64,000 nucleotides of DNA from Haliotis rufescens (Eukaryota). Of this stretch, positions 147 to 47,002 are shown piece after piece. The position numbers and the translations under genes are program-made. The notes beneath the pieces were generated by a model. The model made no database searches. It saw only the letters and a list, made by a program, of their open reading frames with translations, and was not told where the DNA came from. The number at the start of each line of letters is the position of its first letter. The stretch's first letter is position 1. The DNA lies in NCBI RefSeq assembly GCF_023055435.1, contig NW_025963813.1:35216001-35280000 (forward strand), written 5' to 3'.

Positions 147-2259
147 TTCCACGGTCATACAAAAGTGATTACACCACAGACGTCCTTGTCAAGTTTTATC
201 AGGTGGCCTTCGTTTGCTAATCAGGTGGATAGATATGATCGTATGGGATGTGTGGACAATGATGTGATGGAAAGACGCTAACGTGATTTATTACGTCAAC
301 ACTACAGTCATTAAGATTTCAAATGGTTTAGATTGGTACAGGTAATATTCCATGTCCGACTTCTGATAATTTTGTTTCACATTTTATTCTGTGTCCACTT
401 GCATTTGCGATCAAAGTTCTAAATATGTAATCTGTTAAGGATTGATTCCTATATTATAACACAGATGTTGTAATATCACAACACCTGTTTTTCCAAATAC
501 ATTGACATGAGGACATTAACGTGATGGGTAGGAGCTGATGTGTGGCAATACGTCAACACCAAATTCATTTGAATTTGAACTAAATTCTTTTAAATTTCAC
601 AACTAGATCATTGACATACATGTAATACCTTCTGTCTTAAGTTTACTTTCAGTCAATGTTTCGCCAATTTCAGTCACACAATTTGCTGACCACATGCTGT
701 CATTCGTAGTCCACTTGTACCAAGCGATAACTTATTACTTTTCTGTCTCGTTAGGTATTAATATTATCCTATAACCTTATTTATGACTGTTCTATTGCTG
801 CACAAAATCAGTTTGTGTGCTCATTATAAGCTGGATCTTTTCGGTTTTGAATGTGTATTGGCTTTTGTTGATGTTTTTGTTGGGAACACTCAACTAGTGA
901 ATACACACTGATGGAAGTCAAGTAAACTATGTTGAAAACTTAGAATCACTTTGGGACCACTTTATGTACTTGTGTGCAATATGTTAAGAATACCCTTCGT
1001 GAGATGTTATCCATTTCTTGATGCATATAAAGAACATTGGGTATTATCGATATACCATACCATGTGCGATAAACATAAGCATCTGACAGTATCCTTATCG
1101 GTGACGTCAATAATAGGTTGATTGGTTGGTTGGTGTTTATGCATTAATATAGGTACATGTACTTTACATAGATTCATTAAGGAAAGGAGAAAATGTATAG
1201 CCTTGTCCTTGTGGATACAGTCAGTCTCTTCATGGGTTGGTGGTCATGTGCACTATTTTGGAAATCAGGTCCAGTATTAATATTATTCGGGGGTATGACT
1301 GATGTGTCTCTTTTCGACGCACAGTTGAAACTACACTTGAACCCCTTTGTCGATATGGATTCGAGGTTACGTGATGCTGGGTCTGGGTTACACATCACAT
1401 TGTTGTCAGTGTGAACTTACTTATAAACTTGTAAAGGTCATTCACTCTCATTGGGTAATTGGACTCTGGCCTATGACTTTACCCCATTTCACAAGCTATT
1501 TCAACAGACCATGTTCCGCTTTTCCAATGCTTTTGCCTACAATCGGACCATATAATGCAACATATCCGACAGTTTCTTTTACATGAATTACTATTGTGCC
1601 TCAAACACAAAGTCTTGTCTTTTGTTATTAGTACACACGATTCCATGTGTTTACTTACCAGGCTTCATAAAGCACCTCATTACGAAATGAGTTTTAGTTT
1701 ATTTTAAGGTTGTTTTCGAGTGTTAATTACTCTACTATTGGATATCATTTTGAGGATTTTGATTAAATGTAGACACACACTCATTTCGTCTCTCTTTGTT
1801 CTATGTGTTTTTAGGTGACTGATGTAACAAAGACAATATTGTTCTGGAAATTTGGAGGTAATACATCTGTTTTAATTATGTTGACAAATATTTCTTCAGA
1901 CTACTATCCTAGGTACAGTGACATGTGCACAACTGTTGGATGGTAGTACTCATGCAAGCAAACCAACACGGAATACCATGTTCAGTGTGGTTAGAATGGA
2001 GGCAATGAGTTTATATAACTGAAGCATGTCCGTTGGACAGTCTCTTAAGTTCCATTCTGTCTTACATCAAGAAAACTGTTTCCTTGAAGGAAAACAATCA
2101 ATAATCGAGCAATCTTTTTCAATATTGTTCATCCTATTCCTATAATGCTTTTTTTCAAATACAGTTGATGATACAAATGTTCTTTAAATATCCAATTACA
2201 AATGTATATTTGTTATTTCTTTTTCCCGGCAATGTATTTGCCCAGGTAGTTTACAAATG

Positions 2260-17002: not shown

Positions 17003-20000
17003 TCAACACCATCCGGGACTCCATGCGTTGCCAAAGTTTCTTGGGTTAGATGCAGGATCAGGAGGAGGGAAAAGGGCGGGAACCATCTGCTTCCGGTAGT
17101 ATTCCATCCGGGCTCTTAGTTGGTCAACAATCTCCGGCCTCTTTATTGCATAGTCGTTACGCTCAGTGGGATCCACTGTCGGTGAAAACCAAAATATTCA
17201 TTACATGACAAGTTTGACATGTATGTATGTGGTTGACGGGTTTAACATAAATAATTTTCTTATGTCTTTCAATATTGACCAACTTGAATAAAATTTGAAT
17301 TATGGTTAGAAAAAATAATTTGGGTAAATAGACAGGTATTATTACTTTCTGCACCTACAATATATATTGAACAGCTGCACTGGACTATCGCCTTTAATAT
17401 ATATCGTTTGATCATAAATATCATCCTTTGTCCTGTTCATAGGCTCGTGCCAGCCATCAGGTCCTCCAGGGTAGCCCAATATCAGCTTCCAGTAACCAAC
17501 CCTGCGAACAGACAATACCACACAGGTTCACCTGTAATCAACTGCACACTTTCTTGTTCATAGTTTCTATTGTTCAGAATAAAGGTATGTAAGACACGAC
17601 TACATAATGATTTCCCAAGGTTAAAGTCCAGCTTTTGAAGTCTTAGATAGCAATGTCTTAGTCCATAAGTACTTTTCTCAGTGTTCCTTCCCTGTTTTGA
17701 TACATACCCTGCAAATGATGGATGTTTTGAAACCTAATACCTTATTCCAGCATGCCCTTCCGTTGCAGGTTCAAAGTCGTCTAGATTGTATATGAACTCA
17801 GTCCTTGACGACGGATAGCCATTCCTGATAGAATCCCAGTGGCTTATACCGTCGATTGAGGTCTCTACAATATTGAAAGATGTGACTGACATCATCGAAA
17901 TGAAGTCTGAATGAAAAAAGATAACACGTTTTGCCCTTTCCAATCAAGGTCACCTGATCAAGTTCCAATTTTCTCATCTATTCGTAGGGATAAAAGATAT
18001 ATAATGAACATTTCCAAAGGAGAAATAACATAATGTTTTGTTTATTACGTGAACATGTGCGGGCAGTTTACTCATGAATGTATTGTTGTACGAGGCGATG
18101 GTGCTATTGCTAAAGGGATCCACTCTTGAAATATTCTTTGTTGGAACATGCCAGTTTTAAGTCGCACTCGAAAATACATACTGAGATCAAAACATCTGCA
18201 AGAGGTGTTAGCCAGTGTGATAAGTATACAGGTGCATGCTGGTGACACGTGTCATGCTGTGGGAGACTATCTTGGTCCCCATAAAGAATTGATCTGCAAC
18301 AGCTCATTCTTGTCGGAGGAGACGACTAATTCACGACTGTTCAAATTCCCTGAAATTGGTTGATGCATGTCATCGATCCCAGTTGCATTGATCGGTGCCC
18401 ATGATGTCAGTCACTGGATTGTCTTGTCCAGATTATTTACAGACCGCCATCATATAGCTGGCATATCGCTGAGTGAGGCGTTAAACAACAAGGAAGGAAT
18501 TATCAAAGAAGTATGTCCTTATTACCAGGAGTTCCTCCAGCTGCTGACACCAAGGTCGGTTTCCAGTCTACAGCATGCATCATTCTGTAATAACATGGTT
18601 CTGTGATTACATGTGTGTTTGAGTTGTTGTGAACTGTCTGGTCTATATAACCAAACGTCGTTAGCTCAGAGGAGAATTAATCTCCTTCAAAATAATACCA
18701 TTCTTCTCACAGATGTCTAATACTAAATTCATGGCACTAACGAACCCATTATAAGTTGTCTTGGTTTTCTTTAGTCCAGTGCCATACATGAAGGATGTCC
18801 CCTTCGTGCCTCCCTCCCAGATTGTGTGCTTCCCTCCTCTCAGAGGCCAGTTGCTGGCATAACCTTCAATAGGACCGCCATTCTGGAGTGATAAGGTATT
18901 GCTCACACTGAATGATTCAGTATATAGTCTAATGAAGTGAAATTAATCTCTAAAACCAGCTTATTCTTCAAAATCAATAACACCACAACCCTTTGGGTAT
19001 TTGTATGATAACCGATGATTGACGATGTACTCATAAACCATTATTTTCATTCTCAGTATTTCGTTTGATAAAGAAGACAACCTGTCTTACATCAGCTGTG
19101 AACAGAATGAGAGTGTTTTCAAACAACCCCTTCTCCTTAAGTGCCTGTGTAACGTTTCCAATTGCTTCATCGAGGGCAGATACCATGCCTAAAAATAGAT
19201 CATATCAACATACAATTCTGTAATGTTAGCAAAAAAAATTATCCACCACACGGAGGTGGGTCTGGGCTCGCGTAGAGGAAAGTATGTGTAATTACAGTAT
19301 GACTGAGTACCTGAGTATGTTCTGCGACCATGGTTTATCACATTAGGATACATGTTGAAGTACTTTTCAGGAACCTGAATATAAAAGATTGGCAAGTAAG
19401 AATATGAATCAGCATGAGTATCAAATGTCTTGCGATTTTGCAAATATTTCATCCGAGCGATAAACATTTCAACTATTTGAAGTTGATGCATTCAGGCAAA
19501 TTTTCAAGAAAACAAAAATGCATTTGCTAAACATATTGTACTGTCAAGACTTTCACAATTCATTTCGGCTACAAAATCACAACATTCACTTCTTAACTTC
19601 TGATCTTGTTTAATCTAGGATCAGGCACATCTCCTTCAAAAAAAAGAAGAAGAATTAGACTTAGACTACTTTACCTCAATAGGAGCATGTACATTCTGAT
19701 AGGGCAGGTACATAAACAGAGGCTGCGAGACGTTATGTTGGTGGATGATGTCAACAGCTTTCCTGGCGAAAGTGTACTGAAACAAAGCGACAAAACGAGT
19801 ATATCAGATACAGTGTGTTCAATGCTCCTCCTCTACAAAGTCCGGAAACGCTCAGCATTACGTTGCTAATGTTTTGTATCATATTTTGGGCGTGGTGGGA
19901 AAACCGAGTGCCTGAAGTGTTCGCTCGGCACTCTGAAGGCCTGGGTGGATATCCCACATACGTACAATGCGCGACGTCCCTTGCTGGTGTCCCCCACGTG

Positions 20001-23000
20001 ATGTTGCTGGATTATTGCATAAATGGGCATAAAACCATACTCACTGACTCACTTCATATTATATATGAGTTAAAATTTAACATCGCATCGGCATTATTTC
20101 AGCTTTGAATTACATTTCGTCATTGTACAGTTTAATGTCGATTATAGTAGACAACCATTCGTTCTTTGAAATCGAAAGACTATTTGTTTCTCATTGTGAA
20201 AACAATTTCAGTAGAAGTACATGTTTCATTTTTTGGTGCAAGTTGTAACAGTCTTGTAACACTCCCTCATTGAGTATTACCTCCTTTAGTTATAAAGCCT
20301 GTTAAGATTATTTCAGACGAGAAACGTGTAGCTAAATGTAGCCAATTCTAGTTACCGCTACTTGATTTATTTATATTTACAAATGTCCGCTGCTCAAACA
20401 TTACTCACTGCTGAATACTCTCCCTTGTAATCCCAAGCAGGAAGTTTGTTATCTCGGTAGTCTAAATAGGCACCTGTAAAATACATCAACGAACACTTAT
20501 ATCCACAATAAATGTCCATTCATCAGACTTGAGCATCTGACATGTCATTAATGGAGGCAGTACTAAGTAGGTAGGTGATGAGTTAGATTTAATGTTGCAC
20601 CCAAGTCATACATAAACATAAACTGGTTTCGAATTTACTCAAACTCACAAAATTTATTATTTACAAGCAATCAGTTATACTCCGACAATTATTTATTCTT
20701 CAAAGAAATATCCAGGGCAATTAAGGGAAAGTATCTTTCAGATCTACAGGTTTATTAAACATCGGCAGAGTCCAGCAATATATGTATCTCAAAACATGGA
20801 ATACATTTTGGATGTCCATCCACGTGCGTTTTTAGCGAACATCTACGAGTACACTGTTACACCTACTGATAATCCATGTCGATATTTAAGTTTATTGTGA
20901 TAATCGGAATTTATTCAGGCAGCTCGCATGTTTTGCCTAAGATCCCATGTTGCACATCCCATCACTTCTGTAAGACAGTTTTGTAGATCCAACTAAGTGA
21001 CACATGAAACGATAACCTTGAACTCATCAGTGAAAATGGATTCACTTGATCATTGATTTTTTACTTTTTGTCATTTTCAAGTGATCCTGGGTAGGACTAT
21101 TCTCCGACTTCACCAACTACCACCAAGTTCGATGTGCTGCATGTTGAGTCGGAAAAGGTTTATGTCGCATTCTGGAAAGGGTTTTTGTCGAGTTTGTTTA
21201 GATCAATGTCAAGAACAGTTATATGTGGTTTGATTCTGATCCCATGTGATGAACTTTGGGTCTACTTTGAAAAAATACTCATGTGTGTTGTGTTGGTCGT
21301 TAAATACTTGCCATTGCTATGATTGAAGTAGTCCTCCTGTGCACTGTAGTAGCCGAAGAACGTATCAAACCCTCTGTACGTCGGTGTACACTCCCATTTG
21401 CAGAAACCCAGATGCCATCTTGAAAGCATCAAAGAAATGGCGTGAGGGAGTTGTGTTGCATGGAATAGTGCAACCCGAAACTGCTTCGGATACCGCGATA
21501 GTTTGAACCGATTTGTCAAAAAAGAAATCTGAATTATTTCAATTCGTTGCATACCCGTGAAGATCCGGGCTAGGACAGGTCTTCAACAACTCACGCTTGC
21601 CTTGAAAGGCGACTATGCTTGTCGTCAGAGGCGAATAACGGAATTTGGCGGCCAGGCTCACTAACTTGGATAACGTTAATAAGTGGATTGTCTGATTCAG
21701 ACTCGATTATTTACAGACCGCCATCATATAGCTGGAATATTGGTGAGTGTGGTGTTAAACAACAAACCAAACACAATTCTTTGCGAACACAGAATGCATT
21801 CATATACATTTATCTACCTTGCTTGTAACATATCGAGATTCCATTCTTCCTTGTTCTCATACGTAGTTCATTCCGATCACTTCAGACACATTGTATAACA
21901 AACCCTTAAGTGTACATCAACATAATCATATGGGCACTACCACACTCTACAGAATCAGTTGTGCCCTAATGCTGGACGTACTTGCCGACCATATGGGTAG
22001 CATAGCCGAGTTTCTTCAACTCTTGTGGCAGGAAGGTGTAGTTGAGGGGCACACATGCGGCCTGAACGTTGGCTAGAACTTTGTGCTACAATGTGAAATT
22101 AATATGTAGCCCTAGGACCTTATGACATCATACAAGACAAATTTACACACTACATTAATGACACTCTTGGATCAGGGGGCGCTGTCAGGCGACAGAATCA
22201 CATTTGTTAACGGTTTTTAACAAAACCTTTATTTGTTTCTTCAATGTTAGAGATTTAAATATGTTTGCCTAACTTACATTTGTTTGGACAGGGAAGAATA
22301 ACCTTTATTTACCTGCATACCCACTCTGAATGGAAACATTCCACTCATGAAGGCCGTGCGAGACCTTTAAATACAAAAAAAAAAACAGCCGTCAGTAGTG
22401 AACTTATTCGTATCAATCTCATCTCGAAAATCCTTCTAATATAACAGTTATAATTTCCAAGATTTTACAAATACATCATGACAAGAGATATCTTATATTC
22501 ATACATCAACATTCGATGTTTTGATGATAAATAGGTGGAACATGTTGGGATACGAGTGTTATATGTACAAGCTTGGGTAAAAAAGCAAATGATATTTACG
22601 GGCTGCAAAAAGGCTGGACATAGGCGCTCTCGAAGATGATCCCCTCTGTAGCCAGTTTGTCAATGTTAGGAGTCTTCATGTTTCGGTTTCGGAAACCAAC
22701 ATCGTGCCATCCTTGTTGTAAGTTAACGTGACGGGATAATATTTGGATACATATGCGTCAATGAAGTGTAAATAAGAATCGTTTGGACGGTATAACTTCT
22801 CTATATTCTTGGATGTTAGCCTTCGTATTAACTTGTTTTCGCATATATGTATAATTTGTTTATGGAATTGTTAACGTTATATATTTTAGTTTTTATATAC
22901 CAATACGTATGTGGAGAATCAGTCCTCCTGGTCAGAATTGCCTTAATATTGACGGAGACATGCGTATATTTTCCAAACATGTGTGATAACATTTCATATT

Positions 23001-23297
23001 TGGGTGTGTTGGGAGCTTGAGACGAACATTCAATACTGTCAGGAATAACGATTCTCATCATCCCATATGTTCTATCGGCTGATGCATTTAATCTTTTGCA
23101 CAGATATATTATTTGACCTTGTGTGATGAACTGATCATCTGACGTACTCATCAGAACGAACAGAAAAACGTTGGTCCTTTATCTGTGAAGAAAACATGCT
23201 CACCTAAATCATCTGCAACTATGAAGACAATGTTCGGGCGTTGTGTCGCCGCGCAAGACACAAGAACCGAGAGGAACACAAGAATGAACTTCTCCAT
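17003..23297 (-). CDS. Arylsulfatase B-like sulfatase, paralog B (14 exons, 477 aa, intact)
   Basis: Exons 23204-23297, 22600-22711, 22313-22364, 21982-22085, 21312-21418 (GC donor), 20409-20473, 19675-19776, 19311-19374, 19091-19188, 18746-18882, 18526-18584, 17741-17864, 17359-17501, 17003-17175. Exons 2-14 have the same sizes as in [23 protein letters not shown]; ends WSPGWC*. Confidence 0.92.
19885..20055 (+). mobile_element. Old tRNA-derived SINE (family T1) in gene B intron 6
   Basis: Diverged match to 34091-34252 with (CACT)n tail. Confidence 0.55.
21553..21772 (+). mobile_element. SINE-like family R1, internally deleted
   Basis: Matches 4209-4499. Further partial copies near 10325-10433(-), 18356-18490(+), 31922-32103(-), 41303-41447(-), 53476-53655(-), 54211-54366(+). 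Confidence 0.75.
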
Positions 23298-24829
23298 TGC
23301 CACGTTCAGACAAAAGTGATTACATCACAGATCCTAGTCACATTTATCAGGTGACCTTCGCCTGCTTATCAGATAGATAGACATGATCGTTTGCCATGTG
23401 TGCACATTAACGTGATAGGTAGAAGCTCACGTGATATATTACGTCAACAATGCATTGTTTTAATTTCAATTGGCTGGATAGGTACGGGTAATATTCCATT
23501 CTGGGTCCACTTGCACCAAGCGACGATAGTTCTAAGCCTTTAAGCTGTTACGGGTAAATTTCCAAATTAAAACGCAGATGTTTTAATATCACACCACCTG
23601 TTTTTCCAAATGCATTGACTTAAGGACATTAACCTGATGGATAGGAGCTGAAGTGTGTCAGCACACTTACTCCAAATTCATTTGAATTTTAACTAATTTC
23701 ACAACTGGCTCATAAGGGTACACTAGCTATCACATGTTGCACCAAGTTCCTACTGTATAAAGACAGTCGAATCCAAGGATTTTTTTCTTTTCATTCTATT
23801 GGTCGACTTCATTTAAAGCTATTAGAGGGATGGTATTTTTTTCTCCAATAGCCTATCTTTGATGCCAAGGTTTGAGTGATTTTCAGAATTGAAATGTTAG
23901 TAGACACAATTGGAAATATTTCTGTTCATGACCGATCAATGCTGGCCGATAATATCTGTTGTTTCTCTAACATAAAGCAATCCACAAAGGGTACATTCAA
24001 TGCCATATGTGACGTTTTAGGTCTTCAAAAGGTTTTGTGCAGTATGTTTTAGCTGTAAAGATAGATTTGAATTCAGGATCAGTTATCAAAACTATACTTG
24101 AACCCAGTCATAGACATGCATTCTAGGTTACATGATTCTGGATTTGGGTAAGACATCATTGTGGTCAATGCGAACTTACTTATAAACTGGTAAAAGTCAC
24201 TCACTCTGATTGGTTAATTAGACTATGGCCTATCCCTTTACATCATTTTACAACCTATTTTAACAGGCCATTTTCCACTTTTTCTAATGCAGTTTGCTTA
24301 TGTACAAATTCCAATTTTGCCTAAAAGAGAAAGTATTTTACTTTGTTGTAAGTATACACGATCCTATGTTTTTACTTATCAGGCTGCGTCAATAGCCTAA
24401 TTTCGAATGAGTTTTCAGAAATTTTGAGGTTATATTTGAACGCCAGTTACCCTACTATTGGCTATCATTTAGCCATTTTTAGTTTTGAGTCACAGGCACG
24501 GTACTTTGTGAATGGGATTAAATGTAGACACTTTCGTTAATCGTTTCGTTTCTCTTTGGACTGGCTAGGTTTGGGTGTTTCAGGTGACTGATGTAACAAA
24601 GATACTTTTTTCTTGAAATTTACAAGTAACAAAACTGTTTTAATTATTTTTTAATAATATTTCTTCTTACCACCATCCAAGGTAAAGTAGCATGTGTTCT
24701 ACTGTTGGATGGCAGTACTCATGCCATGAGCCAATACAGAATACTATGTTCAGTTTGTTAAAATGGCAACACTAAGTTCTCATGTGTGATGCATGTCCGT
24801 TGGACTGTGTCACGAAAACTGTTGCGCTT

Positions 24830-26657: not shown

Positions 26658-29600
26658 ATGGAGGTCCGACAGCTCCTTGCTCTGTTCTTATTGTTCTTCT
26701 CATTGACATCAGCGCAGCGTCCGAACATCGTGTTCATTGTGGCTGATGACCTTGGTGAGTGTAGATAGTTAAGGCAATCAGAAAGTGATTAAAGTGAAAT
26801 ACCTACTGAAACAGTATGCCACTCTAAATGCATCTCATTTCAAAGTAGAGATATTTATTCTGTACAACCCGGTATTCATAGGAGACTGTGTCTTTGTACA
26901 GGCTGGAATGATGTTGGTTTCCGGAATCCCGACATGAAGACCCCAAACTTCGATAAACTGGCCACAGAGGGAATCATCTTCGAAAATGCATATGTCCAGC
27001 CTCTGTGCAGCCCGTAAATCGTTCTAATTTTGTTTCATTCTTATTTTAATGAGACATTAGAAAAACATGTGTTGTAACTTCAGTTGAAGCTTATTCTCAC
27101 GCACATAAAGACATATATGCATAAAACAAATAAGTTATAAAAAGCAAATACAAATAGATTTAAATAAAGAATGAAGAGAATTTAGATAGAGCTGTATTGT
27201 AGAACAACCTATATAATTGCATTACAATCTTACACAAATATCAATGTTTCAGATCTCGTACCGCCTTTATGAGTGGGATGTTTCCATTCCACGTTGGCAT
27301 GCAGGTAATTTTGTCGATCAATTCATAAATATTAAGAAGTGCAAAAACGCTTTGAGCAATCTATTCACACTATGCATGATGATACAAGTAGGAAATCCCT
27401 AAAAAAATGCAGGTTTTATTTAAGGTTATTCTCCCGCTCCTTGTGGCTTAATCCCTTCACTCATTTTTCAACTGACCCTATTGTCACTTAGATGTTTCAC
27501 CCGTGAAGATCGGGGTTTGAATAGGTCTGCAGAAACCCACTCTGCACGTAAGAGGAGACTATGCTTGTCGTAAGAGACGACTTACGTGATCGGGTGGTCA
27601 GACTCGCTGACTTGGTTGATGCATGTCATCGTATCCCAACTGCGTTGATCGATTCTAACGTCAATATCACTGAATTGTCTGTTCCAGCCTCGATTATTTA
27701 AATTCCGCTGACACATAGCTGGAATATTGCTAAGAGCAGCGTTAAACAAAAAGCAAAACAAACAAACTTAAATGTTTCTTAAAGCTTTAAGGTTGCAACA
27801 AAAGCGTATTACAAAAGCGTGTTTATATCTACTTCTGATCTTCTTTAATCATTCACGTTCCTGATTTTACAGATTTTCATATCATGTCCCATGCGAGCAT
27901 ATAGAAATTGCTCATAAATTAAAGACACATTCATATTCAGCATAAGACTGTGCTCCATGGCCAAGCAGTGTGTGTGCCCCTCAACTATACCTTCCTGCCC
28001 CAGGAACTGAAGAAACTCGGCTATGCTACGCACATGATAGGAAAGTAGGTATAATGTCACATTGAAACTACAAATTTGTACAATCATGCAGACAGACAGA
28101 CAAATTTATTCGGTAATTCAGGCCACCGGCCCATAATACGATGGAAATATACTGAATATATAGAGGGAGGGTTAACGAGACGCTTGGGAAAAGAGTTTCT
28201 TCTTGCTCTAGAATACTGGTCACAAATCATAAGAACATAGAATTCATCTTCAACATTGTTATTTCCCTTCGAAAAACAGAAAGTGCAGACACGAAATTAT
28301 TACACCGGAACATGGCTATAAGTCTACGTTGGTAAGAAGACATATCACAAGTAATTTATGACTCCACATTTAGTAATGACTTGAACTGTGAGTAGTAATT
28401 GCATTTCGTTGATGATGTCAGGGAAAGGTGCCACTATTGAGTGAGGTAGTCGTAAAATCTTCGTTTAAAAACTGTCATGAAATATTGAATATTACCAATG
28501 TCTTGGCTTAGCCAAACAAAACCAAATCCAAACTGGAATAAAATCATTCTAATATGTGATGCCAGGGTAATATTACCATTATCATCAAGAGATTTTAGTA
28601 TAATATTATAATAAGCTTGGATGGGTAGCCTGCGTTGTTCCATCTGAATGAGTCTGCTCCAGTACTTGACTGCTCTTGACATGTAGTAGTTATAGTGTAG
28701 GGAGATCCCACAACATTCTCCTAGAACCATGTTGTTATTGGTGAACTCATTTACTTTCAAAACGGATTTTCAGAATCTGTTATGGACACTCTCAATAATG
28801 TTACAGTAGCTGGTTCCCTCTGATCTCTGACAACAAACATATTTTGTGACATACTTTGAAAAATATATAGACCCTATGGAGCAATACACGTTGGTTTCTG
28901 CTAATGTAAAACTTACAGTACATATATGATTATATACCAGTGGACAAACGGTCCTGTTCCTTACTGACTTGTATGGGAAATAATAAATAAACGCAAATAA
29001 AGAACGATGTTGCAACAGAACAATATTCCGTGAAACATGAGCTCATCATGACCGTGTCAGTATAATATATGCTGAACCAAAAACATCTAAACATATAAAA
29101 CAGCAAGGATACAGAATAACCAGTCTCGGTTATCAGCCGAGAGTGATCCATTTTGGAATAAAAAGCATAGACGTGCACGTGATATAAATGGATCACTGAA
29201 AATCAATGATGACACCAGGTGTTCGCAATAAAAGGTAGCATGTTTTGCCCTACCGGTAGGCCGCTCACACAATTTCCATAAAAGAGTTGGGTAGGTTGTC
29301 AGTTTCACAAGTCAGTATCGTCATAAGCAATGACAAAATACTAACAACGGCGCCCACTTGACGACAAAAAATGTTGAGGACGATTTATGAGCAGTCATTT
29401 CAGTTTTTGACTTTGACCTGTCACAGCTGAACCAACTTCGGTAGGTTTGGAGTTCGGTGTACATGACGTTTCATTTCATCCCACACGTCCTGATATAAAG
29501 TGATGTGACGGCCATGGGTCTGAAGGATGATCATTAGAGGGGTCCAGTGAGGCTTTCCCATCCAATTATGCTCCTGTCACCTAACGCACTACGTTGAAAA

Positions 29601-32600
29601 ACGCACGCGTAAACGTAACGCTCCATTCAGCGTCGATACACACGCTGAAGATTATCACTGTGGTCAAGCTATAACCTTGTCTGATTCGTAAAGAGGACCT
29701 CTATTCCTGTATCTTGAAACATGACCATGTCCGGCGTGCCGTAAAATGACGTTGCATCAAACATAAACGTAGGTTGACCTCATGGTCGGATGTTATCTCT
29801 CATCATCGCTTCCTTACAGTCCTTGTACTGAGGTAAGCCAGGGATGCTGTGGGCTGTTAATCTGAAACCGACTTTCTCAAGTGAACCAGATTGATAAGAT
29901 GACCTCGCCAAAGTGAGGTTACTCGTGGACGTCCAGAAGGTGGTCGGTCCCTGGTGTTCCAAGACTGAATGTTCGGCATTACGATGAACATCAAAACGTC
30001 TAGCAACAACATTTAGTGCAATTACGGTTTCACACATTCAAACTGCACGTAACTGCGCATTTTCAAATAGGCGTGGCTAGACCTTTACCGGGTTTGGCTA
30101 TCAAGATTTTTTTTTTTTTTTGTAGTAAAAGAATTTACGGCCTAACGTGAACTGTGAATGTGACGAATTTCTTACACGAGGGATTTGTACATGCACTGAC
30201 CCGGGATGCACGTGCATTTTCAGGGTCATCATGGGTAATATTGACGAAGTGTTCGTAAATGTGATAACCATACATGATTCTGAACAAAAACATCCATGCC
30301 AGTTATGTTTTAATGTGATTTTTATAGTGCACAGGAATTGTTTTCCGCTTGGATATGTGAGTTGCATTATGAATCTGTACATTTATCATTTGCATTATAA
30401 TTTCAGATGGCATCTGGGTTTCTGCAAGTGGGAGTGTACACCGACGTACCGAGGCTTCGATACTTTCTTTGGTTATTATAATGGAGCTGAAGACTACTTC
30501 AATCACACTGTTGGTACGTATTATTCTGGTTGATGGTTTTAGGGAAAGGGTCGTTTCGTGAATTTACGTTTTACTTATACATTGTTGGCAGCTGTATGAT
30601 GATCTTGGCTTTTTTTAATATTTCAGCAGAGAAGTACTTGGATTACAGGGACAATCAGCTTCCAGCAAGAAACTATTCTGGGGAATATTCTGCTGTAAGT
30701 ATACAAAAAACAATTTGTCATTAACATTAGTGTAGTTGACAATTTTCATATCAATCCTGATTATATTTTTTAAAATGCTTACATTTTGTAATATATCAAA
30801 GTCCTCGGCAAGTCGGGTTTTGTTTTAGTCATTGTATACAGTCCTATCATCCTTTCAGTTCACATTCGCACAGAGAGCCGTTGACATCATCCATCGACAT
30901 AATGTATCACAGCCTCTATTTATGTATCTCCCTTATCAGAATGTACATGGGCCTATTGAGGTAAGGAAATTCACAGTATTGAAAACGAGAGTCAGTTTAG
31001 TTCCTCCAGCCTTTCTTATCGGTTGAATCTGTAGTACATATGTCACGTATTAACATTAACCTCAATTTAATTATTTTCGAAAGACGTTTCTATTAAGAGA
31101 GTTATATATATATATAGTCCAGAATGGATCAATTCATAACCAGCGGCACGATGACCCAGTCCCAATCTTATTTTTTTTTGGGGGGGGGGTTGTCAGCACC
31201 CTACCTATAAGGCCTGCATCACTTTGGGCTTTCCTCAAGCATTAAGCTGACACACTGTGAAAGAACTGGAATACTGTTGTAAGTGGCATATTGTGATTTA
31301 TGGTAATATGGTGATAGTGGTGTCACTGAGGGTGATGCTCTATTTGTTCACAATGCAATGAATGTGTTCAGTTTGTCAATGTATGTACCTCAACAATGGA
31401 CATCACAGGTGCCCAAGAAGTACGAGGACATGTATCCGAACGTGATTAACAAAGGGCGAAGAAAGTTTAGTGGTATGTACATTAATATATATATCTACAT
31501 CCTCACATTGTGTGCCTCAGAAAGAAAATAATCAAAGCTTAAAGTAATATTGACTTATTGTTGAGTTGAGTCTTATAAGCGAGTTTTGCCCCAATCTGTA
31601 AGTTGGTTTCACCCGAATCGAAAACATCTGCACTATATATCAATGTTTGACCCAGAATAACCTCACCCACCCTGCCATATCTGAAATACTTTTCAAAGCA
31701 CTGACCCACTACTTTCATTACTTACAGGCATGGTGTCTGCCCTAGATGAGGCAGTTGGAAATGTTACCCAGGCCCTGAAGGATCGGGGCTTGTTTGAAAA
31801 TACTCTGATTCTATTCACCACAGACGTAAGTAGTTGCAGTTGCAATATCAACATCGGAGAGAATCTTCAATCATTATTTTACAGAATGATTCACGTTTCT
31901 TGAACTTGGTGACAATCTTTATGATTGATTGATTTATTGATTGATTGTTGTTTAACGCCGCACTCAGCAAGATCCCAGCTGTATGACGGCAGTCTGTAAA
32001 TAATCGAGTGATTGACATCATGAGCATCGGTCCACGCAATTTGGATACGGAGACATGCATCAACCACCTGATCATGTTAGCCGCCTCTTACGACAAGCAT
32101 AGTTTGCATTCTTTGGAAAGCATGAGTAATCAGAATATGTTTCTCACTATTCTTAACAATAATTATACCTTGCCTAACACCTATACCAGTATAACTTTAT
32201 GACGTTTCACATTAGATGGCAGCAAATAAGATATTTTATTTCTTGTTAATTATTATCAAACCATGCATGGAAGAAACTGCATATTGCAAGACTAAAAAAA
32301 ATGAAACACACACAGCCACCAAGCAGTTCCATGTTATACAATAGGAACATTACACCTTTACCACTCTAACTTTGTTAGTGAAAAATACAATGAACTGTTC
32401 AATTGTTTCAGTTAGTGAAGGGTGAAATACATTTTATTTTGTCAGCTGGATACTCATGTCTCTTTAACCTGCTAACCATATCGTTCTCCCTTGTTATAAA
32501 CCATTGATTATACAGAATGGAGGTCATATGAAAATGTTCGGCAGCAACTGGCCTCTGAGAGGAGGAAAGTACACGATCTGGGAAGGGGGCACCAGGGGGA

Positions 32601-34543
32601 CATCCTTTATGTATGGTGCTGGGCTCCAAAAGACAAGGACGACCTACGATGGGTAGTAAGACAAGTGAATACAATCAGACCCAATTAAATGATCCTCTTT
32701 CGGAAAAGTGTTTCAGTGATAATGCAAATAAAATAAATGATCCTAGTTCGAATTTCGACAGGCATATAGTGAAATAGTAAAGGATTATTGACCTTTCCCG
32801 ATCGAAACCTGAATTGAAGAAAACATAGCATGTGAAACGTTTCTGTGTTCATGTTTCCATAACCATGTCCACATTGTTACATAACTATGTCTAATATCAC
32901 TGTAATAATATCATGACTGTATGAGTGTATTCAAAATGTACCTTCGATGACATTCTTGTTACACCACTCATTGAATATATATACTGCATGAACTAAAACT
33001 AGTTGAAATGTTTAGTCAATGTTTGATGGGTTTAAGTATGTGTTTTTTTGTAAATGTGAATCGCTTCTACCTCTAAACAGGATGATCCACGCCGTCGACT
33101 GGAAACCGACTTTAGTGTCTGCTGCTGGGGGAACACCAGGTAGGGAGATTCTCATTCATATTTCCAAAATATTTTGTCACAATTTCAATCTAGACAGATT
33201 ATTTGGTAACTTCAAAGAATCAATGAGACAATTTAAAATGTTATTTCGATAAACTATTGCTAAAAATCATCGCCAAGGTTCTTCGAAGTGTTTGTCCACC
33301 TTAAATTGCATTTGGGTTGTAGCAACTACCATTGATGGAATAAGTCACTGGGATTCCATTCGAAACGGGCTTCCTTCATCAAGGACAGAGTTCATTTACA
33401 ACATTGATGACTTTCCAGTTCCGACTGAAGGCCATGCTGGAATAAGGTGTGTTAAGCATGTTTTGTCAACAAATAAGAGTACATACAACAGGCTGTCAGA
33501 ATTACCAGTATCATTTGTTATTGGGATTTGCATATCTACTATACCTAATCAAGGACCTATTTAATAAGCAATACCTAGTATCACATGCCACTATATGAAG
33601 TCGTTATCATTAAAGCAATCAAGTACAGATTTTATGTAACTGTATCTGCATTCTTGTGTAGAGTAGGTGACTACAAGCTGATCCTCGGGTTCCCAGGAGG
33701 TCCTGATGGCTGGCACAAACCCATGAACGGAACCAAGGATGACAAATATGAAGAGACAGTTTACACCGCTGGTGATGAACCAGTCCATCTCTTCAACATT
33801 CGAGGTACGCAATTATTCAACATAAAAGTGAATGGTCATCCCGAGATGTCCTACATGCTGATCACACAGTACCTACCAGCACCTGTATGTGCTACTGCTA
33901 TGACCACCTTACTGCGTGTTCGGATTCGACTCGTGGTTATTGATCTGTAATCGTATACATTCAAACCGATGGGTTTCTAAGACCTGGTTTGCTTCAGGTT
34001 TTCATCATCACATTCCACTTGAACTTGACCACCGTTACATGATTGCAGCGCCAGCATCAAATACATGCTGCATATGTTAATGGTGGATCCCGGAGCGGTT
34101 GGGTAGCCTGGTAGTTAAAGCGTTCGCTCGTCACGCCGAAGACCCGGTTCGATTCCCGACATGGGTACAATGTATGAAGCCTATTTCTGGTGTCCACTGC
34201 CGTGATATTGCTAAAATATTGCTAAAAGCGGCATGAAACCATACACACTCACTAATGGTGGATCCAGACCCGAGAATACAAGCTGTTTATAAAATCAATG
34301 CAACACCACGATGAATGCATATTGCTTATAAAGCTCTCTCATGTTAACAAATATTCTGATACATATCCAGAGGATCCTACCGAGCACAACGACCTTGCAC
34401 AGCAGATGCCGGACATGGTGGCGAAGTTGCGTGCCCGGTTCGAGGAATACAAGAAGACGATGGTGCCAGCTAATTTCCCTAAACCGGATCCTGCATCTGA
34501 TCCCAGAAAATATGGATACGCTTGGACCCCCGGGTGGTGCTGA
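26658..34543 (+). CDS. Arylsulfatase B-like sulfatase, paralog C (14 exons, 478 aa, intact; inverted sister of A)
   Basis: Exons 26658-26754, 26902-27013, 27253-27304, 27941-28044, 30407-30513, 30630-30694, 30859-30960, 31409-31472, 31728-31825, 32516-32652, 33081-33139, 33323-33446, 33662-33804, 34371-34543. All catalytic motifs present; AATAAA at 34621. Confidence 0.93.
27499..27767 (+). mobile_element. SINE-like family R1 in gene C intron 3
   Basis: Full-length match to 4209-4499. Confidence 0.8.
28089..28900 (-). mobile_element. 3' fragment of a LINE (RTE-X/CR1-like) in gene C intron 4
   Basis: VLGECC...VKYWSRL...[10 protein letters not shown]...FKRRFYD, NVEDEF, then AATAAA and a (TGTC)n tail; absent from gene A. 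Confidence 0.75.
29335..30095 (-). mobile_element. Degraded Tc1/mariner remnant in gene C intron 4
   Basis: Reverse-complement homolog of 9105-9990 at the same intronic position. Confidence 0.7.
34091..34252 (+). mobile_element. tRNA(Asp)-like SINE family T1 in gene C intron 13
   Basis: GGTAGCCTGGTAGTTAAAGCGTTCGCTCGTCACGCCGAAGACCCGGTTCGATTCCC head; TSD TAATGGTGGATCC at 34078-34090 and 34253-34265; single empty site in gene A (~3921-3930). Confidence 0.85.
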
Positions 34544-36182: not shown

Positions 36183-37301
36183 TGTTCTTATCTCAACTTC
36201 CATTAAACCAGACAAAGTAACCAGTAATTTCGAATCTTTTCTGATTGGATCCTTTTTCAAACTAGACCCAAAGTTCATTACATGGGATCAGAATCAAACC
36301 ACATATAACTGTTCTTAACATTAACTAAATAAATGCGACAAACACCCTTCCCATAATACGACATAAACCTTTTCCGACTCAACATGTCAGCACATCGAAC
36401 TTGGTGGTAGTTGGTGATCCAACCCAGGATCATCTGAAAATCAATGATCAAGTGAAACCATTTTCACTGATGAGTTCAAGGTTATCGTTTCATGTGTCAC
36501 TTCGTTGGATCTACAACACTGTCATTCAGAAGTGATGGGATGTGCAATTTGGGACTATACGTTGAACATCCTGGCTGAATTATAATAATTCCGATAATCG
36601 CAATAAACTTAAAATAACCATTTTCGACCTGAATAATCAGTATGTATCACAGTGTACACGTGGATGTTTGCTAAAAACGCACGTGAATGTACATCCAAAA
36701 TATATTCAACGTTATGAAATGTTAACCACATACAATGCTTGACAATGCCACCACCAAAGGCGTGTTTAAAAAACCCAGCAAATCTGAAAGATACTGCCCA
36801 GCATATCTCTTTGAACAATGAATGCATGTCGGAGTGTAACTAATTGATTGAACATAATAAATTGTGTGAGTGTGAGTTAATTCGAAACCTATTCATGTTG
36901 ATGTATGGGTGGGCAGCTACATTAAATCTTACTCATCATCTACCTACTTAGTACTGATGACGTTGGTAATTCATGAATGTTGTTAAACGTTTGCTGCTCC
37001 TGCCTGCATTAATTTTATTTCAGATGCTCAAGTCTGGTGAATGAACATTTTGTTTAAATCAGTGTTCGTTGATGTATTTTACAGGTGCCTATTTAGACTA
37101 CCGAGATAACAAACTTCCTGCTTGGGATTACAAGGTAGAGTATTCAGTAGTGAGTAATGTGCACAAAAATCGCCTCTAGTAGTTATATATATCGATATTG
37201 GACGATGGTGTTAATAAGTATCACCATGTTCCAGATTCAAGTTAGGTACTGATACCAGCTGCGTATCTTGATTAATGTGAACTTTTGCAATGTACAACAT
37301 G

Positions 37302-37410
37302 TTGTTCTTCTACCACTGTAGATAGTCACGAGGGAAACCAAGGTCAGAAGGATAATTTTGTTCCTCTACCACTGTAGATAGTCACGAGGGAAACCAAGGT
37401 CAGAAGGATC
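37302..37410. repeat. Two-copy ~57-bp tandem duplication
   Basis: TTGTTC(T/C)TCTACCACTGTAGATAGTCACGAGGGAAACCAAGGTCAGAAGGAT twice. Confidence 0.85.
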
Positions 37411-37736
37411 CCAAGATCAACACTTATTCTTGTCGTAAGAGGTGACTAAATGGATCCGGTGGTCTGACTTGGGTGACTGTGTGTCATGGTATGATGATGG
37501 AATGGGACCCAGATTGTATAAACCACTAATTGCTCTGGCCCAGATCCCATAAAACCGCCGTAACCGGCCAGTTCTTCCTCGGGGAAGGTTCAGACAAGGC
37601 CACGCCTGCCCCTCTCTTCGCTCCAACCTAAGCCAGTTCTCTCTCATCTCAGGCCAGTTCTTATTCACTGTGGTCGTACCTCCCCACGTATTCAAACATG
37701 TAGGAAAGTAACTTATTTATATAATTATGCCCAGTC

Positions 37737-37737
<1 letters not shown>

Positions 37738-37770
<33 letters not shown>
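37738..37770. repeat. Poly-C tract
   Basis: About 33 consecutive C. Confidence 0.9.
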
Positions 37771-39994
37771 ACCAATGGATTTCTTCAGGAACTCCATATT
37801 TGACATGTTTCACATATTTATGAAACTTTATATTCGTCTTCAAATAGTTTAGATATTTTACCACAATATAGAAAAGTTTCTATATTTATAACTGTGAAAT
37901 ATAAGGATGTTTATGTAAATTAATGATTATTGACAAATGTTAATCTTCTATGATGCCCACGATATTGATGAAGCTTTTTGTGTATTCATTTCTCTGTATC
38001 ATTCACAAACGGTTTTATTGACATTAAAATGGAAAAAAAGTTCGCAACTCAAGAAGAGGTGGATCTTTCTAAAATGCTTAATTGCCGCTAATGTATCCCT
38101 CTGTTAAGGTATTAAATAATGAGATTATCAACAAAACAAATGCAAAACAATAACACCTGTTTGTATGTTGTGTTTCCTCCTTGTGTCTAAATGAATTTCA
38201 GGTAGTTATTTGTGAATTTAGATATATCTGATGATTAGATGTATCTGAGGTCTTAAATACGATGGTTATACTGAGAACTGCTCATTCTATACTGTTTTCA
38301 TTCACTAAAATAGTCAGGCTTTTATAATATCACAATGTATGTATCAAACTTAAATAATTTGTCAAATACTCATTCTGTTGCTCTGTTTCAGTATACATTC
38401 GCACAGAAAGCTGTTGACATCATCCACCAGCACAACGTCTCCCGGCCTCTGTTTATGTACCTGCCCTATCAGAATGTCCATGCTCCTATTGAGGTAATTA
38501 GGAAGTCTTTTAGGTAGCTTCGTTACAAGACAAAAACGAGCATCTTCCGTCGCATCAGTTTTGTCTGTCTGTTTGAAAAAAAATATTTCTGGAACAGCTC
38601 CTTCTTTTCCATGGAGATGAGCAGCATCCTATGCCATGCGACTTCTGAGAGAATGCAAACAGGGAGATTTGGGAATTAAGATGAATACAATTGCACCCCC
38701 CAGTATGTGTATCTTAATTCCCAAGAATGTATGTTTTGAAAGTCTAGACAGTACAATATGTTTAGCCAAATTAATGCTTTTAGCTTTCTTTGAAAATGTC
38801 ACTGGATGAGTCGACTTCAAATAGTTGAAATATTTATCTGTCGGAGGAAATAATTGCAAAATCACCAGACATTTGATACTCATGCATTTTCATGTTCTTA
38901 TTTGCCAATTTGTTATATTCAGGTTCCCGAAAAGTACTTCAACGTGTATTCTAATGTGATAGACCAAGGTCGCAGAACATACTCAGGAAATCTTTTGTTC
39001 AAACTGTAATTACACATACATTCCTCTTCGTGTTCCCTATTCCTACCCCGTGGTGTAGGGGATAGACAGATTCGATCGCCTGTCCGTGTCATACCAAATG
39101 ATACGGTACTTAATTAATATATGGTACTTGCTTGTTGTTTCCTGCCTCTTGATGGGCATTAAGCGGATAAAGCAAGGACGTGTTGCCTTGGAATCAGTAT
39201 AATGTGCCTAAGTTGTGGTATCCCTGCTAAACTGTGAATATATGTTATGAAAACAAAATGCTTACATGATTACAGAATTGTATGTTGATATGATCTATTT
39301 TTAGGAATGGTGTCTGCCCTCGACGAAGCAGTTGGAATCGTTACACGGGCACTTGAGGAGAAGGGGTTGTTTGAAAACACACTGATTCTATTCATAGTGA
39401 GGAAGGTCGTATTCTTGATCAAACGAAATAGTGTGAATGGAAAGTGTCGTTAATGAGTGCACAGAGGATATTTAATATCACTCAAGAATGGCGGTCCTAT
39501 TAACGTTTATGCTAGCAACTGGCCTCTGAGAGGAGGGAAGCACATAATCTGGGAGGGGGTACGAGGGGGGACATCCTTCATGTATGGCACTGGACTAAAA
39601 AAGACAAGACAACTTATAATGGGTTCGTAGACGCCACCCATCTAATGTTGGGCATCTATGAGAAGAATGGCATTTAAAGGGAGATAAAGGGTCGATTAAT
39701 AATCATCTGAGCTAACGATGTTGGGTAAAGAGATCAGACAGTACAGGACATCTCAAACACATACGCAATCCCAGAACCATGTTATTACAGAATGATGCAT
39801 GCTGTCATAGTGCGATTTTACTTTGTTGAGTAACGTTGCAGCCAGAAATATTCCGGTGTACCAGGCTGAACTTTCCGCTTGCCAGTTCTTCCCCGCGGAC
39901 GAAATAGCCGAGGCTTAGGAATATCCCAGTGTTCTTCAGTGAATTTGAGATAAACTGATTAAAAGAGGGGTATGATTGAGCCTGCGTTCAGATA

Positions 39995-41998: not shown

Positions 41999-44900
41999 TT
42001 AGCACCACCCGGGGCTCCAAACGCCTCCAAACTTTTGGGGGTCAGATGCAGGATCCGGATCGGGGAAATTGGCTGGCACCATGGTCTTCTTGTACTCCTC
42101 AAACCGGGCATGCAACTTCGCCACCATGTCTGGCATCTGCTGTGCAAGGTCATTGTGCTCAGTCGGATCCTCTGAATGTGAAACGTAATATGTGTAAAAA
42201 CTTAGGGGAAGAGAGTTTTATAAGCATTGTTTTCATCGTGATGTTGCATACATTTTGGAGCATGAATCAAGTTTAGTAATGATGGGATGATGAGAACCTA
42301 AAAGACAAGTCTTGAAATGCATCAGAATGAGAGGGTTCTACTAAGCGTTGAATGTATACTATTATGGATCGATCAAAATTACTAGCCGAATCCAAACACA
42401 CAGTAAGTGACTTTGCAGTTTTGCAGCAGTACACATAGGTGCTGATACGTACTGTGTGCCCAACGCTAAGGAGGACTACTAAAGACAAATGACAAATACT
42501 CAGATTTATATGTTAATTCATAGCGCACCTCGAATGTTGAAGAGATGGACTGGAGAATCTCCTTTGACATAAACTGTCTGTTCATATTGTTCATACTGGG
42601 TTGTGTTCATGGGTCTGTGCCAGCCATCAGGAGCCCCAGCGTATCCCATGATGAGCTTGTAGTCTCCTACTCTGATACATAATAATGCAAATAGGTATTT
42701 CATTGCTTTTAAGATCACGACTGTATACAGTGCAGTGGCGTGTGATATGGTACTTGAAATAGTTCATTGATTAGGTATGTAAATATGCAAATCGGGGTAC
42801 ACCATGCAGGTAACTCAGTCAAGCTGTTGCATTTAAACTTATTTGATGACAAGACGTCCTAAAATACCTTATTCCAGCATGGCCTTCGACAGGAATTTCA
42901 GTGTAGTCAATGTTGTAGATGAACTCTGTCCTTGATGAAGGGAGCCCGTTTCGAATAGAATCCCAGTGACTCATTCCATCAATGGTAGTTTCTGTGCCCC
43001 ATATGCAACGAAAGGTGTAAAACCGTTGTGTTGTACCTTGCCGATGTTTTTTTTGTTATTTTCTGAACATTTTATCAATCTAATGGCACATTCAAAATCA
43101 TGTCACCAATTCTTTCAAGATACAAAATAATCTTTCATTATTGCAATTGAGACACAATTCGGTAAAGTATAAATGAGAATCTCCTTACCCGGTGTTCCCC
43201 CGGCAGCAGATACTAAAGTGGGCTTCCAGTCGACAGCGTGGATCATCCTGTTTAGAGATAGAAGCCATTAACATATGAAAATATACCACCAGCTAAAAAT
43301 CCGCCAAACATTGTCAACAACATTTCAATTAGTTTCAGTTGATGTACTTAACAATCAATGATTGGTTTTGTTTAACGCCGCACTCAGCAATATTCCAGAT
43401 ATATGACGGCGGTCTGTAAATAATCCAGTCTGGACCAGACAATCCAGTGATTGACATCATGAGCATCGATCCACTCAATTGTAATCGATGACATGCATGA
43501 AACAAGTCAGCAAGTCTGACCACCCGATCTCGTTAGTCGCCTCTTACAAGCATAGTCGCCTTGTACGACAAGTATGGGTTGCTGAAGACTTATTCTACCC
43601 CGGATATTCATGGGTCGGGTGTATAAAGACTTTATTGAAGGTGTATTTTGAACAAACACCAATGGAATAAAATTAGTATAGTGAGGACAGTTGTTTACCA
43701 AAATGTACGTGGTCTTTTACTGAATAACCATGTTCTGCCGTAATTATTTCCAGGATAATCTTTTGGATTTTAGGGATTATCACTAAGGTACTTAACATTG
43801 AGTTTTGTCTTATTGTATTTTATGGCGTTACCCATTGTATGTAGTCCTTGTCTTCTGGAGCCCAGCACCATACATGAAGGATGTCCCTCTCGTACCACCC
43901 TCCCAGATCGAGTGCTTCCCTCCTCTCAGGGGCCAGTTGTTGGCACAAGCTTCGAGAGCGCCGCCATTCTGAATGATCAATGTTTTATTCGAAGAGAGAA
44001 TGACACGATTAGCAGTTGGATTCTTCACGAATACCGTTGAAATGGCAATCGTTTGATGTTCCAAATGTATAACACACAACGGTTTGGTGGTTTGTGTGTT
44101 TCTTTTTAGACACGCAATTGCACTTTCTGTCGTTCAGGATTCATGATCACAAGAAATAGAAATAATCTATTTTTTCTTTCCTCAACTGCAGAATGACAAG
44201 CCATACTTTTGTTGGTTTTAGGCAAGGTATATTTAATCATCAAAAAACGGAGGTCAAGGCTGATAAGTCAAAATTAATGAAGCTGTTCACAGAGTTCAAG
44301 ATACGAGAAGCATTCTGTACAAAATGTACAGAAAACCTCTGTACAAAACTTCTCCCAATGGTAATACTGCAACTACTTACATCGGTGGTGAATAGAATCA
44401 GAGTATTTTCAAACAAGCCCCGATCCTTCAGGGCCTGGGTAACATTACCCACTGCCTCATCCAGGGCAGACACCATTCCTGTTGGGAATGAAAATACTGG
44501 ATCGGTGCTTTGAACAGTATTTCCGGGGTCTCATGTGACGGTTATGCTGATCAACTTAATAAAAGTAAATAACAATTGATTGGAACTATGATCATAATAT
44601 TTTCTTAGAAATACTTTGTGAGGATTTCAGAGACAAGTGTTTGAATAAAATATGAAATACGGACATAAACTTCCATACCACTCATCGTCCTTCGCCCTTT
44701 GTTAATCACATTCGGGTACATATCCTCATACTTCTCAGGAACCTGTGATGTAAACAAGTAGAGGTACACATATTGACAACAAGTACATGGTAATTGCATT
44801 GTAATTAAATATAACCTCACCTAAAGAAACACCACCACCGACCTAAATTTTTTTGAAATGGTAACCCATTCATCGATTGAAAATATATAAGTCTTAGCAA

Positions 44901-46953
44901 CAATGTCTTTCGAAAAAAGTGAAGCTGACGTGCATGTTAAGACAACTGGCATCATGCGCGCTCAACCTACAAGAGTGATTATGGTTTTACGCCGTTTTTA
45001 AAAATATTCCAGCACTATTACGGCGGAGAACACCAAAAATGGACCTCACACATTGTACCCATGTCGGGAATCGAACTCGGGTCTTCCGCGTGACGGGAGA
45101 ACGCTTTAACCACTAGGTTACCCGACCGCCCCTCAACCTACAAGAAAGCCTGGTGGCATTAAACGGGAACACGTTCTCAATACAGAGAATTTCGTTACCT
45201 GAAGAGGACCATGTACGTTCTGATAAGGGAGGTACATAAACAACGGCTGTGAAACATTGTGTCGATGAATGATGTCAACGGCTCTCTGAGCGAATGTGAA
45301 CTGAAATGGTAATAGAAGTGAATATAATGTTCAGGCAAATAAATGATTCACCGAGGATGTAGATATGTTACAAAAAGTAAGTATTTTAAGAATATAATTG
45401 CGATGGATATGAAGATTGTCAACTCAAGTTTGTCTTTTCCCTTGCATACTTACAGCAGAATATTCTCCCGAATAGTTTCTTGCGGGAAGCTGATTGTCCG
45501 TGTAGTCTAAATACTTTCCTGGTGAAATATGAATTATACTTAGACCATAATACATCTTACATCATATTCTTACATCTACTAACAATGAATAGGTGAAACG
45601 TTTATTCACGAAATGACGTCTAAAACAAGCTTCCATAAAACCCCACAAGTTTTAATGATACGCACCAACAGTGTGATTGAAGTAGTCTTCACCTGCGTTA
45701 TAATAGCCAAAGAAAGTATCGAATCCTCGGTACGTCGGTGTGCACTCCCACTTGCAGAAACCCAGATGCCATCTGGAGTCACAAAATGCTTGTATCGTTT
45801 AAAATGCAACTCATAAGTAATCATATATACTACCGACAAAAACAAAGGGATCTGATGCTTTGAACATAGCTATCGTTTAGGTGTACATTTACAATACTGA
45901 ACGCAACATCATCAATCTAATCATAAATAAATTTCACATCATATATGAACAGTACGTGTCCCAGGAGCACACATAAGACAAAGTGTGTGCGCCTGTAGGT
46001 GAATTCATAATCACTTATGGAATATTGCTAGGTACACGCCTAGAATGCCACAATTAACAGATGAAATGACGTCAATATTCCAAGTTGCCCAAATGTTTGT
46101 TCAAATCGAAATGTTTCTATTCCCGTCTGTGGGACAAGTGCCATCAAACAGGTCGGGTTGCAATGAGACATGGTCGTGGGAGACGTAACAACGACAACTA
46201 GACAAGATCGTCTCATTACATCAATTTTGCAATAGATACAAATCTGCTCCTGGTAGCAATATAGAATTTCGTACAATAACAGGGAAGCGAATTTCAACTT
46301 CTACCTTTAATAAACGGAAAGGAACTAACTTCAAGGCATTCTGTGAAGTGTGTGGATCTTACAGCTTATCATAGGCGGGAAAGATTGAGATGGGCTAGGT
46401 AACTCTAGGGACGGCGTTACGCCGTTTGCATACGATTAAATGTTTTGCTTCCCTTTCACAGATGGCAGACTTACTGGCAGAAAGTATTGAACTGCACGAT
46501 AACAATGCCACATCATGCCGAGGTCGTTACCGATTACTTTCAAGGAGATGGCATATGGACATTGGACTGGTCCGCCAGTACGCCTCCTACCCGGCACCCG
46601 GCACCCGCCAGCGTCACTCAGCCTGAGAAACACCTGATATTGATCTACTCGTCCGAAATTAATTTAACAGACATGTATCGTCATTACGCCTTCACTATGA
46701 TTTCATTAGATACTTCATTTCTCTGGAGACCGGAAGGTCCGCGGTTCGATCCCCAGCCGCGTCATACGAAAAAACGTCAAAAGATGGTCCTTGTTGTTAC
46801 CCTGTCTGGCGCTCGGCATTAAGGGCTAAAACAAGGACTGGTCGGCTCGGAGTCAGTGTACTGTGTCTGAGTGGGGTATTCATGTTAAACTGCGGCATGG
46901 TATCTCAGTGTGCTAGCACTATAAATCGGCATCAGTTCGGACTAGTACAAGCA

Positions 46954-47002
<49 letters not shown>

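Follow-up and report, generated by a model that had tools for sequence, protein, structure and literature searches.

Recurrent change at a predicted pocket-rim codon among duplicated arylsulfatase B-like genes of the abalone Haliotis rufescens

Background

The S1 sulfatases owe their specificity to recognition of the leaving group and not to the catalytic core, according to a review that documents the desulfation of algal polysaccharides in bacteria and whose table of enzymes is bacterial (PMC9096561). Structural reports describe residues of the sugar pocket. In AMOR_S1_16A, a loop (266-276) following Asp263-Asn264 lies near the pocket; Glu270 (Asp+7) is assigned to the S0 sugar and Arg273 possibly to +1, while Trp79 (catalytic Cys+21) forms a pocket wall (PMC11760155). 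In PfS1_19B, F103 (Cys+26) forms the -1 subsite (PMC6923384). Among animal enzymes, human arylsulfatase B (ARSB) is classified as SulfAtlas S1_2 in a published table (PMC5066984). A precedent for duplication is provided by PxGSS1-3 of Plutella xylostella, three genes of proven function derived from sulfatase C, which are reported to be tandem duplicates positively selected toward diet-derived sulfated substrates, in this case small molecules (PMC10375594).

In the literature searched, which comprised sources outside subscription journals, we found no description of a sulfatase expansion in abalone or other molluscs. In this work we analyze a 64-kb stretch of the Haliotis rufescens genome (hereafter, the window), which gene models show to be a tandem cluster of ARSB-like genes, and compare it with related clusters in the same genome and with proteins of three other abalone species.

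Methods

Counting pseudogenes, the exon carrying the loop of interest matches 93 places in the genome. The genome stretches examined contain 29 copies of this exon (exon 10), from which 17 intact close paralogs were analyzed. The 12 excluded copies comprise six that are broken or partial (copy D among them), one cut by its stretch and five from a more distant cluster, in which exon 6 could not be mapped. Columns inserted in genes F, H and L were deleted from the alignment. Two families of intronless genes were also considered, retaining 22 of 25 loci for the C112 family (three truncated loci excluded) and 12 of 18 for the C13/C615/C157 family (six truncated loci excluded).

Codon models were fitted with our own Python code, rather than PAML or MEME, using GY94 with F3x4 or F61 frequencies and naive empirical Bayes. 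Branch proportions were taken from M1a, and dN/dS values for segments and sites were obtained with the synonymous rate fixed gene-wide. For the comparison across species, the 17 genes were combined with 54 proteins annotated in H. asinina, H. rubra and H. cracherodii in a tree that omitted both variable loops and comprised 70 proteins from four species after pruning one isoform. Nodes were labelled by species overlap, with the species grouping drawn in part from the gene tree, and changes were counted by parsimony.

Results

The arylsulfatase B-like cluster

A six-frame search of the whole window for the motif NGG-x7-NWPLRGGK yields five matches (Table 1). All five loop sequences quoted in the initial annotation are recovered, and each opens a 137-nt exon that is the tenth of 14. 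The interval originally assigned to the gene C loop (32516..32548) does contain the NGG, the loop and one N, but the Asp of the DNGG motif resides in exon 9.

Table 1. Positions of genes, loops and individual codons in the window
Feature	Position	Strand	Source
Copy Z, exon 1; sixth copy, an intact gene extending past the left end of the window	53..149	-	
Gene A, intact, sister of C	3637..11316	-	gene model
Loop of A, YIEKYGN	5694-5674	-	six-frame search
Gene B, intact; belongs to the second subclade and has a GC donor at exon 5	17003..23303	-	gene model
Loop of B, PIEGYAS	18873-18853	-	six-frame search
Gene C, ARSB-like sulfatase of 14 exons and 478 aa, intact	26658..34543	+	gene model, protein match
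Gene C second variable loop, residues 89-96, 21-28 past catalytic Cys68	27944..27967	+	
Gene C codon 92, within second variable loop	27953-27955	+	
Gene C Asp267 codon, DNGG metal ligand, final codon of exon 9	31823..31825	+	
Loop of C, HMKMFGS, residues 271-277, exon 10 start, between D267-N268-G-G and N-W-P-L-R-G-G-K285	32525..32545	+	
Gene C codon 274 (Asp+7), dN/dS >1, 9 residues in 17 paralogs	32534..32536	+	
Copy D, pseudogene derived from part of B and retaining exons 6-10	37085..39622	+	gene model
Loop of D, PINVYAS	39496-39516	+	six-frame search
Gene E, intact	41999..49348	-	gene model
Loop of E, ALEACAN	43959-43939	-	six-frame search

The spliced product of gene C matches XP_046380029.1, 'arylsulfatase B-like isoform X2 [Haliotis rufescens]'. 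In contigs of three putative RNA runs, splicing is seen at eight GT..AG introns of the model, where matching at 90% likeness admits paralogs and the RNA nature of the runs is a guess. One putative RNA run contains pieces that align to exons 12 and 13 of gene C without mismatch; in another, X15, we looked for splice joints of this gene and saw none.

The five loops had been taken to represent five paralogs; four of these (A, B, C, E) are intact genes, and D is a dead fragment. Copy D is devoid of exons 1-5 and 11-14, its exon-8 donor reads GA, both the Asp codon and the donor of exon 9 are lost, and exon 10 carries a net 1-nt deletion. We rejected it as an enzyme on the grounds of the missing catalytic Asp267 codon, the frameshift and the absence of a complete reading frame; being broken, it is uninformative on specificity.

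Several other features of the window were recorded. GC splice donors occur at window positions 21312 (B exon 5) and 49252 (E exon 1), the former being common to the whole B subclade. Genes A and C belong to an inverted duplicate pair (3231-11793 and 26217-35874) with introns alignable at ~75-82% identity. A dispersed repeat of ~250 nt, SINE-like by size only and very abundant in sequencing runs, has more than 10 copies in introns and spacers, at positions that include 4209-4480, 27499-27765, 31937-32103, 40884-41141, 43359-43616, 47896-48110, 54902-55077 and 59872-60139.

Catalytic core and predicted pocket

The CSPSR (C-x-P-x-R) and GKWHLG motifs are present in all 17 intact paralogs, and D30, D31, H209, D267, N268 and K285 are invariant among them. 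The family profile PF00884 scores 191 bits (cut-off 25). A fold predicted from 110 sequences has a pLDDT of 96, as do residues 271-280, which are ordered. Human ARSB (1FSU) is the best match in both fold (TM 0.90, 41% identity), followed by S1_19 carrageenan sulfatases, and sequence (E 1.5e-119; 403 bits vs 204 for the next).

A gap-free alignment to 1FSU confirms the proposed location of the loop between D267/N268 and K285. For the bacterial S1_16 sulfatase, the corresponding loop is reported to line the sugar pocket (PMC11760155). In terms of register, the pocket residues of AMOR_S1_16A and PfS1_19B would match gene C residues 274 and 89-94, the equivalence at Asp+7 being by register only because the AMOR loop is six residues longer. 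Homology thus suggests that residues 274 and 89-96 may touch the sulfate-bearing sugar or its neighbour. Arg288 of human ARSA, also at Asp+7, may contact the substrate; no mention of such a contact was found in the papers searched, and we did not use it as evidence.

Loop divergence between sister genes

The statement that the loop differs in every paralog holds inside the window but not genome-wide, where genes I and J share a loop, as do O and P. The C35:32.71-32.80 Mb cluster (L024, L026-L030) offers a further counter-example to hypervariability, with the same loop in five of the six exon copies of this C35:32.7-Mb type.

Genes A and C are sisters with a bootstrap of 100 and, with the codons as originally quoted, differ at six of seven loop residues and at one residue elsewhere in the exon (Q305K). 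Across the protein they differ at 35 of 459 residues, six of them in the loop, and none of 5000 permutations placed six differences in any 7-residue window, so that the differences are clustered beyond chance. Outside the loop, dN/dS is 0.13. Within it, six differences in 18 non-synonymous sites compare with a synonymous divergence of 20% (P=0.14), and seven of 21 nucleotides with an intron divergence of 18% (P=0.07). The pair shows a loop freer than the rest of the gene. Its use as evidence of selection was rejected, neutral divergence not being exceeded, and the contrast is compatible with a tolerant surface loop drifting neutrally in a redundant family.

Codon models in the window family

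Gene-wide comparisons across the 17 paralogs favour positive selection (M1a/M2a: LRT 18.0, P=1.2e-4, flagging codons 92 and 274; M7/M8: P=1.6e-8; M8a/M8: P=4e-5). The initial annotation attributed the whole loop to diversifying selection, naming a loop dN/dS not above 1 as one observation that would speak against it, and this is what we find for the loop as a unit: dN/dS is 1.07 (CI 0.77-1.45) for residues 271-277, 0.77 without codon 274 and 0.92 when double mutations are allowed. We hence rejected the whole loop as positively selected, and the most plausible state of its other six positions is weak constraint. A rate above 1 is seen at codon 274, with a dN/dS of 4.4 (CI 2.2-9.2; P=3.8e-5, or 0.017 corrected for 459 sites), and the signal is shared with the second loop (segment 89-96: 1.59, 1.19-2.08; codon 92: 3.8). 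The interpretation is narrowed accordingly, from the entire loop to one recurrent, probably selected codon and the second loop 89-96.

Results for the loop, segment 89-96 and codons 92 and 274 are unchanged under F61 frequencies. Once the local synonymous rate is left free, significance is lost for both loop 271-277 and 89-96 in the 17 paralogs. Segments 147-150, 154-160, 207-213, 362-368, 392-413 and 455-471 are variable in this set, yet each has a dN/dS below 1. Gene F carries two extra residues in one variable segment, 157-159, and genes H (L046, C35 ~35.487 Mb) and L (L054, ~35.563 Mb) have a shrunken intron 5 of 24 nt, AG-less and in frame, which would add eight residues there.

Allowing adjacent double mutations improves the fit by ~37 log units and reduces the gene-wide LRT to 3.4 (P=0.03); segment 89-96 falls to a non-significant 1.29. 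Codon 274 declines to 3.6, with an uncorrected P=4.8e-4 that is non-significant after the 459-site correction. Codon 274 thus has a dN/dS above 1 that is replicated elsewhere, but in the window family it is non-significant under the multi-hit model and the 459-site correction combined. Nine residues at one neutral codon have a probability of 0.021, which makes the 17-paralog family on its own borderline; together with the value of 0.10 for the eight residues seen in the C112 family, it also makes residue diversity unexceptional in itself among ~44 neutral-class sites.

Trees built for separate blocks reject the whole-gene topology in two of four cases, a conflict that, together with the same one in the C112 family, points to gene conversion. 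On the local-block tree, in a test that favours the block's own tree, codon 274 retains a dN/dS of 4.1 (P=0.0012).

Replication in intronless clusters

The intronless ARSB-like clusters are clades separate from the window family. They form large tandem arrays (C112:62.47-62.74 Mb; C13:43.3-44.4 Mb; C615:0.24-0.36 Mb) with many intact frames, possibly derived from retrocopies, and have stronger site-level selection than the window family.

The C112 family yields an M8a/M8 LRT of 76.6, with a dN/dS of 6.2 (P=1e-6) at the position aligned to 274 and 5.5 at position 92; its loop as a whole, at 0.77, is not above 1. With double mutations these positions remain at 3.9 (P=2.3e-4) and 4.5, respectively. 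Block trees reject the whole-gene tree in four of four blocks, and on the local-block tree site 274 reaches 8.8 (P=3e-8). For the C13/C615/C157 family, only 89, 210 and 274 exceed a posterior of 0.8, with 274 at 0.987 in a column that depends on the alignment, since four of the 12 genes have a one-residue loop gap. Site 274 is the sole position flagged in all three families. Five of the 11 flagged window-family sites recur among the 14 of the C112 family, an overlap with P=4e-4 among 190 variable sites and P=0.07 if the pool is restricted to 60 fast sites.

Changes after duplication and after speciation

Loop changes in the four-species tree number 52 after duplication and 29 after speciation (baseline 49%, P=0.004), and those in segment 89-96 number 81 and 35, compared with 303 and 293 at 43 other fast sites. 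For site 274 alone the counts are 15 and 7 (P=0.053). Among pairs at 8-12% distance, which are not independent of one another, residue 274 is different in 42% of the 45 orthologous and 90% of the 299 paralogous ones.

The Y1 loop is identical across four species and the H loop across three; orthologs of A/C, F and L differ at 274. Among four DNA runs, the gene C loop is kept in three. Run X11, from a related organism, has one contig in which 3 of 553 nt differ from gene C, all within 19 nt (window 32521-32539), one change substituting Lys for Met at 274; this pattern may reflect micro-conversion or an old haplotype.

Discussion

Our results directly support the gene models, the invariance of the catalytic residues, the site rates, the recurrence of 274 in three clusters and the post-duplication excess. 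We consider it probable, if well short of certain, that the ARSB-like duplicates have kept their catalytic core and have had pocket-rim positions retuned by selection following duplication. Under this model, the duplicated ARSB-like sulfatases have invariant catalytic residues, selection after duplication would have driven apart a few predicted pocket residues, above all 274 and 92, and the copies would thereby gain different preferences for sulfated sugars. Abalone feed on seaweed, and this ecology suggests dietary seaweed polysaccharides as candidate substrates.

The main competing explanation is relaxed constraint, with the loop drifting neutrally and codon 274 standing out through multi-nucleotide changes and chance. 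The near-neutral loop rate, which drops once 274 is removed, the gain in fit from double mutations, the A/C contrast and the numerous pseudogenes among the copies all agree with it. We nonetheless judge it unlikely, as it does not readily account for the flagging of codon 274 in three families, for a signal that outlasts the double-mutation model in the C112 family, for loop changes that concentrate after duplication when those at other fast sites do not, or for certain orthologs that have identical loops in four species.

Selection may instead be real and have another target: endogenous glycosaminoglycans or mucus, sulfated small molecules in detoxification, or the evasion of dietary or microbial inhibitors that bind the pocket rim. 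This alternative, which differs from pocket retuning toward sulfated sugars in substrate alone, is consistent with the existence of relatives at 50-60% identity in bivalves, limpets, carnivorous snails and amphioxus. Non-grazers are thus among the animals with such proteins, and the ARSB-like family has no strict link to a seaweed-grazing habit. Repeated change at a single site, such as M vs K among close relatives of gene C, would also fit an arms race, but the post-duplication excess and the stasis of several ortholog groups favour fixed functional divergence over continuous antagonism, and we hold this alternative to be improbable. We give even less credence to an artefact of gene conversion, in which short tracts exchanged among tandem copies would shuffle loops and lead a single tree to over-count changes, as the block trees and the tight cluster of differences in the X11 contig might suggest, because the signal at 274 persists on local-block trees, conversion homogenises and is no source of nine residues, and the pattern is repeated in unlinked families.

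That duplicated enzymes diverge adaptively around the rim of their active sites is a well-known pattern, which makes the present case less surprising. A broader proposition, of which we are doubtful and which we advance tentatively, is that abalone possess a large toolkit of their own of seaweed-polysaccharide sulfatases derived from ARSB-like genes, three separate expansions each having retuned specificity through one small set of pocket residues in which Asp+7 would act repeatedly as a switch. If true, it would constitute an animal counterpart of marine-bacterial sulfatase arsenals and a ready map of specificity-determining sites. If a grazer owns dozens of rim-diversified sulfatases, its own genome may encode part of algal digestion, and the two or three sites that recur would provide a small, direct mutagenesis test of S1 sulfatase specificity.

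Among known systems, the best sequence and fold match of these genes is human ARSB (N-acetylgalactosamine-4-sulfatase, 1FSU), which has the same DNGG-to-NWPLRG loop length as the abalone copies; abalone differ in having dozens of copies with variable pocket-rim residues. The next-best sequence and fold matches, the bacterial S1_19 carrageenan 4-O-sulfatases (6BIA/6B0J, 6PSM, 9HH2) and S1_16 (AMOR_S1_16A, 9FO1), build sugar subsites from the same two loops in the structural descriptions cited above, at 27-30% identity to the abalone proteins. The glucosinolate sulfatases of Plutella are the closest proven case (PMC10375594). Compared with them, the ARSB-like expansion in abalone is far larger, and a single site has changed in parallel in three of its clusters.
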